Shown here: piece after piece, positions 23,406 to 23,641 of the stretch
Position numbering within the stretch: position 1 is the stretch's first letter
How the letters are laid out: every line of letters starts with the position of its first letter
From: Pampinifervens florentissimum
GTDB taxonomy: Bacteria; Aquificota; Aquificia; Aquificales; Aquificaceae
NCBI RefSeq assembly: GCF_011006175.1
Contig: NZ_CP048795.1
Location: 1,737,092 to 1,769,091 of the forward strand
DNA length: 32,000 nt
Direction: 5' to 3'
The notes under the pieces: generated by a model
Databases searched by the model: none
What the model saw: only the letters and a program-made list of their open reading frames with translations
What the model was told of the DNA's origin: nothing
Translations under genes and position numbers: made by a program

Positions 23406-23641
23406 GGGGCTGGCTTACGCCCAGCCCCCTGCTTGAAACCAGTGGAAAACCCAAAAGAAAAAAAGAAAAAGCCCGAGGCTTGAAAAACGGGCTTACGCCC
23501 GCTGGGGGGAAGGGGATGAGGAAGGCGACAATACTGCCTCCCTACCCCCTTCCCCCCCAGACCCCCCAACCCCATACCCACCATGCTGGCGTGCTAACGC
23601 ACGCCAGCGTTGATAAAGGTTTTTATCTTCTTTTTATCTTC
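23406..23641 (-). promoter_or_regulatory. phage intergenic region: GC-rich hairpins, G/C-run tract, tandem 11-mer (origin / packaging-signal candidate)
   Basis: Hairpins at 23406-23428, 23488-23501, 23502-23560 (long, imperfect) and 23585-23608 (10-bp perfect stem). TTTTTATCTTC x2 at 23620-23641. Confidence 0.55.

Follow-up and report, generated by a model that had tools for sequence, protein, structure and literature searches.

GC-rich hairpins in the non-coding spacer of an integrated filamentous phage of Pampinifervens florentissimum, including a candidate plus-strand origin

The non-coding spacer that follows the assembly ATPase gene of an integrated filamentous phage (inovirus) of an Aquificaceae thermophile contains a row of GC-rich hairpins, whose conservation among related phages falls into three tiers. 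Hairpin A and an adjoining sequence box are universal, hairpins C and B occur in a subset of lineages, and hairpin D and a tandem 11-mer are private. The explanation that we favor, to which we assign as a whole a probability of roughly 0.55, is that these are cis-acting elements of single-stranded (ss) phage DNA. Hairpin A plus the box would be the plus-strand origin, C and B would serve as packaging signal and/or minus-strand origin, and a small additional hairpin (23469-23481) would be a transcription terminator. For filamentous phages of Aquificales, neither an origin nor a packaging signal nor a mechanism of integration has been described.

The phage element, its relatives, and its spacer

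The window, i.e. the whole stretch of 32,000 nucleotides that was analyzed, belongs to a chromosome of ∼42% GC, and the Zot protein that it encodes is identical to an NCBI entry assigned to P. florentissimum (Aquificaceae). It contains an integrated inovirus element of ∼9.17 kb on the minus strand (21037-30213), which is bounded by a repeated AT core (21037-21038 and 30212-30213). The phage genes run on the minus strand from 30109 to 23674 and form a co-directional operon of 6.4 kb encoding, in this order, Rep, small structural proteins, a coat B-like protein, a 704-aa protein, an Ace-like protein, and Zot/pI. Rep (29237-30109) is a rolling-circle initiator of the HUH type (Pfam PF23343, E = 1.5e-12), the motifs of which (HVHIL and YLLKYLVK, the latter with the two tyrosines of a YxxKY motif) are kept in 21 distinct Reps. 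The final gene of the operon encodes the Zot/pI-type assembly ATPase (23674-24750; Pfam PF05707, E = 7e-19; PHROG 197, E = 1e-39), and the spacer begins right at its stop codon. The next conserved gene is ORF64 (23124-23318, minus strand), which starts at 23318 and encodes a small membrane protein with a conserved N terminus (MGLYDRDYMRK). Its start is kept in a DNA alignment of 14 loci, and tblastn finds matches in L061, L002, L044, and L045. The intervening stretch is non-coding; two ORFs in it (one of 65 aa, minus strand, and one of 90 aa, plus strand) were not treated as genes because relatives carry unrelated sequence there.

The host element is a temperate filamentous phage, and both the location of the hairpin region within it and the type of its Rep are established. 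The sequence-only reading of this DNA had taken the region for the non-coding control region of an inovirus, and this is borne out by the identification of Zot/pI, HUH Rep, and coat B protein, arranged in the gene order of inoviruses, and by the position of the spacer next to the morphogenesis genes. It had also placed the region between the assembly ATPase and Rep on the circular map. The spacer does follow Zot, but ∼2.3 kb of genes (21039-23318) intervene before Rep, namely ORF64, ORF112, an HU-like gene, an IS110-family recombinase gene, a candidate bridge RNA, and a cargo ORF.

For comparison we used ∼60 related loci from Thermocrinis and Pampinifervens assemblies and hot-spring metagenomes, found by protein and locus searches and encoding Zot proteins 56-96% identical to that of the window. 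Where named, the close homologues of Zot (n = 53, 56-100% identical) come from Pampinifervens, Thermocrinis, or Hydrogenobacter. Every sufficiently long locus shows the order Zot, spacer, ORF112, HU-like gene, and IS110-family recombinase, the last three genes being on the strand opposite to the phage genes, and in most loci ORF64 lies before them. Between lineages, proteins are 45-68% identical and the DNA of genes is about 65-70% identical. Terminal overlaps, a sign of circularity, were found in none of the metagenomic genomes of the close family. GenBank phages gave no DNA match and the closest Zot match was that of CTXphi, with 29% identity; the phage family of these Aquificales elements is undescribed.

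The 355-nt spacer folds much better than shuffled sequences on both strands (z = −6.5 and −6.4). Hairpins A, B, and D, an 11-mer shared by A and B, and a tandem repeat, all pointed out in the sequence-only reading, are present at the positions given below. The common GC-T(T/A)AC-GC apex that it had described for the hairpins is enriched, since GCTWACGC has five occurrences in 32 kb where 0.51 would be expected, a count reached in 0 of 100 shuffles, and three of the five copies lie inside 236 nt. A better reading of the apex is that of the opposite strand, C-GTNA-G, and the exact 10-mer by itself is not significant. A and D are the sole perfect GC-rich hairpins with a stem of at least 7 bp in the window, so that they do not represent a host-wide repeat. 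A search for dispersed, REP-like copies of the hairpins in the window returned no other copy, and all other occurrences are in related phages. Rfam, at its gathering threshold, returned only a tRNA and no known RNA family for the region, and the miRNA-hairpin matches that it gave on hairpin C at an E-value threshold were dismissed as chance.

A universal hairpin with its box, and a subset of covarying hairpins

Hairpin A (CAGGGGGCTGGGC-GTAA-GCCAGCCCCTG on the phage strand, with an extra bulged G in the 5' arm) has core arms GGGGCTGG/CCAGCCCC at 23406-23428 and extends over 23404-23431 when bulged bases are included. The 11-mer GGCTTACGCCC is identical in A (23412-23422) and B (23490-23500). 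An invariant box, CCTGTGGGCTTGTAT (23393-23407), immediately adjoins the 3' side of hairpin A, as read on the phage strand; it was not among the features listed in the sequence-only reading.

Hairpin A and the box are present in every relative long enough to reach them, and A is the only hairpin found in the whole family. All 29 related loci that extend to this point contain a single copy of an 11-mer of the box, GTGGGCTTGTA, as does the window, and the most divergent member (L004) retains a hairpin together with a variant of the box, GTGGGCTTGTTATA. Across lineages, the 50-nt block comprising hairpin A and the box has a mean column identity of 91%. The structure is constrained as well: in an alignment of 19 sequences (15 distinct), 94.7% of the cells of hairpin A are paired. 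Among the 15 distinct sequences, one pair is G:C in eight, A:T in six, and T:A in one, another is G:C in 13 and T:G in two, and the covariation score exceeds those of all 500 shuffles and all slid controls. The 5' arm always contains 1-4 extra G, and the loop is G-T-N-A with a C:G closing pair throughout the family (GTAA, GTTA, GTCA, and GTGA were seen).

We consider hairpin A with the box to be the best candidate for the plus-strand origin, because it is the sole universal non-coding element, constrained in both sequence and structure, and because its strand is the one to be nicked by Rep. In pC194 and phiX174, the nick falls between G and A. The box contains CTTGTAT, which differs by one mismatch in the 7-mer from the CTTGATA contained in the pC194 origin (PMC7072734), and this resemblance, for a Rep that is a two-tyrosine HUH protein, also argues for the assignment. 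So does L072, a distant circular inovirus whose Rep belongs to the same family (25% identity) and which carries GGGCTTGTTATA in the spacer after Zot; in two genomes with other Rep types the box was not found in the post-Zot spacer. L069, a distant genome with a same-family Rep, is without the box. The two-tyrosine HUH Rep would thus recognize hairpin A and nick in or beside CTTG/TAT, and this nick would start and end rolling-circle synthesis. We infer the position of the nick, like the role of each hairpin, from sequence comparison. The invariant box beside hairpin A is a candidate nick site, and a search for conserved repeats, which could bind an initiator, found none in the family. These results narrow the candidate origin to a family-conserved element of 45 nt, which provides a defined substrate for Rep nicking assays.

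Hairpin B (23488-23501), which reads CGGGC-TTAC-GCCCG on the forward strand of the window, has a 5-bp stem and a C-GTAA-G loop on the phage strand. Its stem covaries (CGGGC/GCCCG, TGGCC/GGCCA, and CGCCC/GGGCG) around an unchanged loop, and the L061/L077, L006, L008, and L010 lineages lack hairpin B or have a degenerate form of it. An alternative partner for B had been proposed in GCCCG at 23471-23475; this GCCCG is real but belongs to the separate hairpin at 23469-23481. Hairpin C (23502-23561), which the sequence-only reading had missed, is a long imperfect hairpin of 25 bp with a G-rich 5' arm and a C-rich 3' arm on the phage strand, where it is preceded by more G-tracts (23562-23584). Its structure is kept in nine distinct lineages, and in C and B together 11 of the 29 predicted pairs show compensatory double changes. 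Aligning the spacers of relatives, a check that had been proposed with the original description of the hairpins, therefore reveals compensatory changes in the stems of A, B, and C; for hairpin D such changes on the viral strand were not found. G-quadruplex motifs were rejected as a feature of the family, as they are limited to the lineages with hairpin C and are present in 8 of 23 sequences on the phage strand versus 5 on the complement.

Lineages without B and C have a long T/C-rich run at the same position, and the L061 lineage has a different GC-rich structure, a three-way junction, in which a T:A pair is swapped for C:G in L076/L077. In the ssDNA circle, C and B, and in this copy D as well, are candidates for the packaging signal and/or the minus-strand origin, where priming would take place. 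If they are the packaging signal, the several lineages from which they are absent need something else.

The strand that folds, and other explanations for the hairpins

On the phage strand, the loops are C-GTAA-G in A and B and C-GTTA-G in D, so that all three have by sequence the C:G closure, first G, and last A of the d(cGNNAg) class. When the unique GC-rich spacer hairpins of the family were inspected (n = 45), loops of the cGNAg, cGNNAg, or cGNABg type were found 15 times on the phage strand and never on the complement. In addition, mismatches in C and B read as G.T 21 times and as A.C three times on the phage strand. This one-strand asymmetry of loops and of G.T/A.C is real. Triloops of the GCGAAGC type are a DNA motif, and the triloop units GCGAAGC, GCGGAGC, and GCGTAGC occur in L008, L021, and L026. 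Loops of the d(cGNNAg) type are, according to the statement in PMC10085684 that cites Nakano et al. (2002), thermodynamically selected stable DNA motifs. Loop position 3 of hairpin A takes all four bases, which fits DNA d(cGNNAg) and not RNA GNRA, a rule that is violated by the GTTA and GTCA loops (∼40% of A loops). Because the loop bias matches extra-stable DNA motifs, the packaged strand (phage-sense, minus in the window) is probably the one that folds. This strand, which is also mRNA-sense, would form a row of GC-rich hairpins with heat-stable C-GNNA-G caps.

The stems had originally been considered suited to ssDNA at high temperature, and the loop chemistry and the G.T/A.C bias, both of which favor the packaged strand, are consistent with such selection. 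A fold at growth-range temperature, which had been suggested as a check, succeeded in part. For isolated perfect hairpins folded as DNA at 70-90 °C, D persists, with a computed energy still at −4.5 kcal/mol at 80 °C, and B is marginal, but the energies of bulged hairpins and of the full spacer in this range were set aside since they were non-monotonic, as expected of artefacts of parameter extrapolation. The loop-motif bias suggests how ssDNA viruses hold structure at high temperature, and a rule of loop stability would serve the design of thermostable ssDNA vectors and DNA nanostructures.

mRNA and viral ssDNA share the same sense, and covariation and strand bias fit either. The main rival explanation, which we consider unlikely but by some way the most serious, is that the hairpins work in RNA, as terminators or 3'-end stabilizers of the Rep-to-Zot transcript, with hairpin A insulating the promoter of ORF64 and GNRA-like loops stabilizing the RNA. 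The hairpins do lie at the end of the 6.4-kb operon, just before ORF64 and its promoter- and operator-like sequences. Hairpin A in particular closely precedes a promoter-like stretch (TTGTAT, then CAAAAT or TAAACT after 17 nt) kept in both lineages, a position from which a terminator-plus-promoter reading can be made. It is followed at some distance by a palindrome, TTAGGAT-N4-ATGTCCTAACTC (23346-23369, minus strand), ∼28 nt upstream of ORF64, which together with a second copy ∼25 nt upstream of Rep (30131-30155) is a candidate operator/promoter pair. Between B and A there is a terminator-like small hairpin, AAGCC-TCG-GGCTT (23469-23481), with a T/C-rich run (23446-23468). This stem-loop followed by a U-run is the only site in the spacer flagged by a terminator scan; it is a likely terminator of the Rep-to-Zot operon and would end its transcription. 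On the phage strand, both the window and L002 have T5 after hairpin B, and GUAA and GUGA are good GNRA loops. However, T5 is replaced by TTCTGC in most relatives, A and D were not flagged by the scan, and what follows hairpin A is the invariant TGTGGGCTTGTAT, not a U-run. Terminators seldom hold 91% identity while genes drift to about 67% DNA identity. The loops of A that break the GNRA rule and the C-GNA-G triloops, which are a DNA and not an RNA motif, likewise speak for the reading as cis-acting ssDNA elements.

A second possibility, which we regard as improbable, concerns the other end of the spacer. Hairpin D (23585-23608) has a perfect 10-bp stem and is lineage-specific, and an 11-mer, GAAGATAAAAA on the phage strand, is repeated exactly in tandem at 23620-23641 (TTTTTATCTTC in tandem on the forward strand). 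A perfect hairpin beside a perfect tandem repeat, near the end of the morphogenesis genes, recalls the layout of the plus-strand origin of Ff phages, and D might hold the Rep nick site with the 11-mer as an initiator-binding iteron. The sequence-only reading had accordingly directed attention to 23585-23641 as the site of Rep action. This placement did not withstand comparison, because the conserved element is hairpin A with its box at the opposite end of the spacer, and neither D nor the 11-mer is family-wide. The closest relative reaching that point, L060 (Zot 89% identical), has one copy of the 11-mer and only the 5' arm of D, with one change, before its contig ends. Neither feature was found in any other relative, and D has no exact match in IMG/VR. 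Phages with Zot proteins 83-96% identical have different sequence there, whereas an origin matched to a conserved Rep should not vary so much.

This variability extends to the whole stretch from Zot to hairpin A. Homology between relatives repeatedly breaks at the stop codon of Zot and resumes at hairpin A (L060, L075, and L078, with Zot proteins 89-94% identical, have in common the first 20 nt past Zot and no more), and in L003 an entire cargo gene occupies this stretch. We conclude from these comparisons that the Zot-proximal half of the spacer behaves as a swappable cassette, within which the tandem 11-mer may be a recent slippage duplication with no required role. The Zot-proximal spacer of relatives is hypervariable and rich in repeats, such as runs of GCCAGCC and repeats of CAGCTGGAGCC, and this, with D and the 11-mer being private to one lineage, might suggest that the GC-rich palindromes are selfish or neutral DNA, i.e. 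a small repeat element or products of slippage with no role for the phage. We give this idea very little credence, for the 32-kb window contains no further copies of the palindromes, and the compensatory substitutions and one-strand loop bias in A, B, and C are unexpected for neutral palindromes.

The IS110 module and comparison with known systems

The neighboring module, on the plus strand, consists of an IS110-family (DEDD) recombinase gene (21549-22658; Pfam PF01548 and PF02371), followed by the HU-like gene (22615-22827) and ORF112 (22820-23158). Upstream of the recombinase gene lies a candidate bridge RNA (21368-21545), composed of two stem-loop domains that each contain a large internal loop. 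The copy in the window folds with z = −6.1 and the family consensus contains 56 pairs, of which eight are compensatory. Its predicted guides are GUAUAGUCC (21401-21409), GGUUCAU (21430-21436), AUAGUGGUA (21484-21492), and AUAGGAUA (21524-21531). The first (target) loop is hypervariable and matches the flanks of each element. On its 5' side, an exact match of 8-10 nt to the reverse complement of the element's own right flank was found in 9 of 10 elements, against 3-7 nt for unrelated flanks. In the window, guide GUAUAGUCC is the reverse complement of GGACTATAC (21036-21028) and GGUUCAU corresponds to the left flank plus core. The second (donor) loop is a conserved one and corresponds to the ends of the entire phage once these are joined: guide AUAGUGGUA matches ACCACTAT in the window, and in the Thermocrinis lineage guide AUGGUGGUA matches ACCACCAT, a compensatory change. 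We rejected the view that the module is merely an unrelated neighboring IS as a sole reading, since the donor loop matches the far end of the phage. A precise loss of the 2.27-kb IS110 module was observed in L033.

The ends of the element were defined by comparison. Homology with L061 breaks off at 21037 and 30213, the L021 and L056 elements, 96% identical over 9.2 kb with unrelated flanks, have the same kind of boundaries, and the left end CATACCACYATTAT is joined to at least 12 different flanks. The TTAGGAT...TCCTAA palindromes at 23346 and 30131 were at first taken for the attL and attR sites of a 6.8-kb prophage. This was rejected because homology with L061, L021, and L056 puts the ends at 21037/30213, and the Thermocrinis lineage is also without a second copy of its palindrome.

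That the hairpins themselves serve integration, as a CTXphi-like folded attP, as part of the bridge RNA, or as donor site of the recombinase, is the least probable explanation of all, even though an IS110-type recombinase is encoded 0.75 kb away and homology breaks off in two independent cases (L063/L019 and L033) at the edge of the palindrome at 23346-23369, ∼75 nt from hairpin A: the element ends at 21037 and 30213, with an AT core and without the dif-like repeats of a Xer/dif-type attP, and the hairpin region lies 2.4 kb inside it, the bridge RNA is predicted upstream of the recombinase gene, with loops matching flanks and ends of the element and a donor loop matching the end junction and not the hairpins, and the hairpin region contains no known Rfam RNA family.

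The bridge-RNA module is a more surprising feature than the hairpin region. It points to an RNA-guided recombinase that moves an entire phage and for which at least 12 distinct insertion sites can be compared, and no description of a guide-to-flank match for a phage was found in the literature searched. A wider synthesis, which we put forward only tentatively, is that these elements form an undescribed family of Aquificales phages that have a single invariant origin module in common, hairpin A plus GTGGGCTTGTAT, where a two-tyrosine HUH Rep would nick. In this family C-GNNA-G/C-GNA-G mini-hairpins would be an adaptation to heat and genomes would travel as the cargo of a bridge-RNA-guided IS110 recombinase, the target loop being rewritten at each site.

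The spacer resembles the intergenic region of Ff phages (f1/fd/M13), where a packaging-signal hairpin, minus-strand origin hairpins, and the plus-strand origin are found, in being a non-coding stretch past the morphogenesis genes, with a row of hairpins on the viral strand, in a phage that encodes its own HUH-type initiator. There is no sequence similarity, and the hairpins described here are short, very GC-rich, and capped by C-GNNA-G. Moreover, the spacer precedes an oppositely oriented integration module and not gene II, conserved iterons were not found in this family, and the roles of the individual hairpins are here putative. As for nick sites of the phiX174 gpA/pC194 type (CTTG/ATA), the likeness lies in an HUH Rep with YxxKY and in CTTGTAT next to a GC-rich element; it amounts to a 7-mer with one mismatch, and the Rep belongs to PF23343 and not to the pC194 family. 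The loops share with the extra-stable DNA mini-hairpins d(cGNNAg), d(cGNAg), and d(GCGAAGC) their C:G closure, first G, and last A, in A, B, and D and in many relatives. The match is one of sequence, and loop position 2 is here always T, which the general motif does not demand.

IS110 transposases at the ends of filamentous prophages of Thermus and Neisseria are already known (PMC11437467). The Thermus phages phiOH16, Zuza8, and Zuza27 offer a further parallel in a transposase-less sibling, which is phiOH3 there (PMC11437467) and L033 here. These phages and Neisseria Nf/MDA show no detectable DNA similarity to the elements described here, whose Zot does not match theirs, and the spacer of phiOH16 was found to contain neither the hairpins nor the box. 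Unlike in the Thermus and Neisseria prophages, the recombinase gene is here transcribed in the direction opposite to the phage genes and is accompanied by the HU-like gene and ORF112. The closest parallel for the neighboring module, as distinct from the spacer hairpins, is the bridge RNA of IS110/IS621 (Durrant et al. 2024, PMC11208160). In both cases a two-loop RNA lies upstream of the recombinase gene, the two guides of the target loop correspond to different flanks, one in sense orientation and one as the complement, the donor loop fits the ends once joined, and the core is a dinucleotide. The core is AT here and CT in IS621, and the place of the insertion sequence would here be taken by a whole phage of 9.2 kb.

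Element ends and bridge RNA guides

The 9.17-kb prophage element is bounded by AT cores at positions 21037-21038 and 30212-30213, with flanks at 21015-21036 and 30214-30412. A candidate bridge RNA with a two-loop fold (21368-21545, plus strand) lies upstream of the gene for the IS110-family recombinase (21549-22658, plus strand). One target-loop guide, GUAUAGUCC, matches the element's own flank GGACTATAC (21036-21028), and a second, GGUUCAU, corresponds to the left flank GGTTC plus the AT core (30218-30212). The guides of the donor loop match the sequence formed where the two phage ends join. 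Among relatives, the target loop differs where the insertion site differs, and own-flank matches of 8-10 nt were found in nine of ten elements. The target loop in the related locus L047 (L047:13804-14037) matched a site of the type seen in locus L034 and not its own insertion site, which it shares with locus L002. This mismatch suggests either that modules are exchanged between phages or that the guide was altered after integration.

The start codon of glgB is 21 nt downstream of the element. At the opposite end, a small ORF (MNRWKDWWEQALRN...), which precedes a nucleotidyltransferase gene, takes its ATG from the AT core and the following G. The right flanks of relatives frequently read AT-GG or AT-GA, followed by a TATAAT-like sequence.

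Between the element end and the bridge RNA there is a cargo slot (21049-21420, plus strand; L061:8908-10382 in a related locus). In the window it holds ORF123, whose 3' end overlaps the bridge RNA, and in L061 it contains a PAPS-reductase-like gene and ORF132. The two L061 genes have the same first ∼39 codons. The slot is empty in the Thermocrinis lineage.

Probable control sequences, and variable DNA in the spacer

The palindrome TTAGGAT-N4-ATGTCCTAACTC occurs twice (23346-23369 and 30131-30155), 25-28 nt upstream of the start codons of ORF64 and Rep, and both copies are probably operators of a single regulator. The Thermocrinis lineage has another palindrome before ORF64, TTAAGGG...CCCTAA, and TTAGGAAT-N4-ATTCCTAA after Rep.

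The phage strand has dense G-tracts, GGGTATGGGGTTGGGGGGTCTGGGGGGGAAGGGGGTAGGG (23540-23584, minus strand). They conform to a G-quadruplex motif and overlap hairpin C in its 5' arm; similar motifs are limited to lineages bearing this hairpin (8 of 23). The spacers of one phage lineage display runs of overlapping GCGAAGC, GCGGAGC, and GCGTAGC units, i.e. C-GNA-G mini-hairpins (L008:6283-6330, L021:11215-11260, and L026:6802-6840), standing where other lineages have hairpins C and B.

The stretch from Zot to hairpin A is a hot spot of variable DNA (L003:6290-7394, L059:5876-7102, and L060:6001-6148). L003 has an additional gene of ∼310 aa there, followed by CAGCTGGAGCC-type repeats, L059 a TnpB/Cas12f-like gene downstream, and L060 and L075 GTCCGTGCCAGCC repeats.

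Probable circular genomes from other environments

Terminal direct repeats of 16-30 nt mark the contigs L072 and L073, which come from other environments, as probable complete circular inovirus genomes, with sizes of about 6.0 and 7.5 kb. Rep is of the PF23343 type in L072 and of the Rep_trans type in L074.

Loss of the recombinase module

L033 is an L002-like prophage at the identical host site. In a comparison of L033:3560-3700 with L002:11557-13828, it lacks exactly the 2.27-kb module comprising ORF64, ORF112, the HU-like gene, the IS110-family recombinase gene and the bridge RNA. The resulting junction reads CCCTAAGT|ATAGCC. The two deletion ends have no core dinucleotide in common, sharing only a nearby TTTAAA(A)TTTCA motif. 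The absence of the module from L033 relative to L002 parallels the difference between two filamentous Thermus phages, phiOH16, which carries an IS110-type transposase, and its sibling phiOH3, which has lost it.
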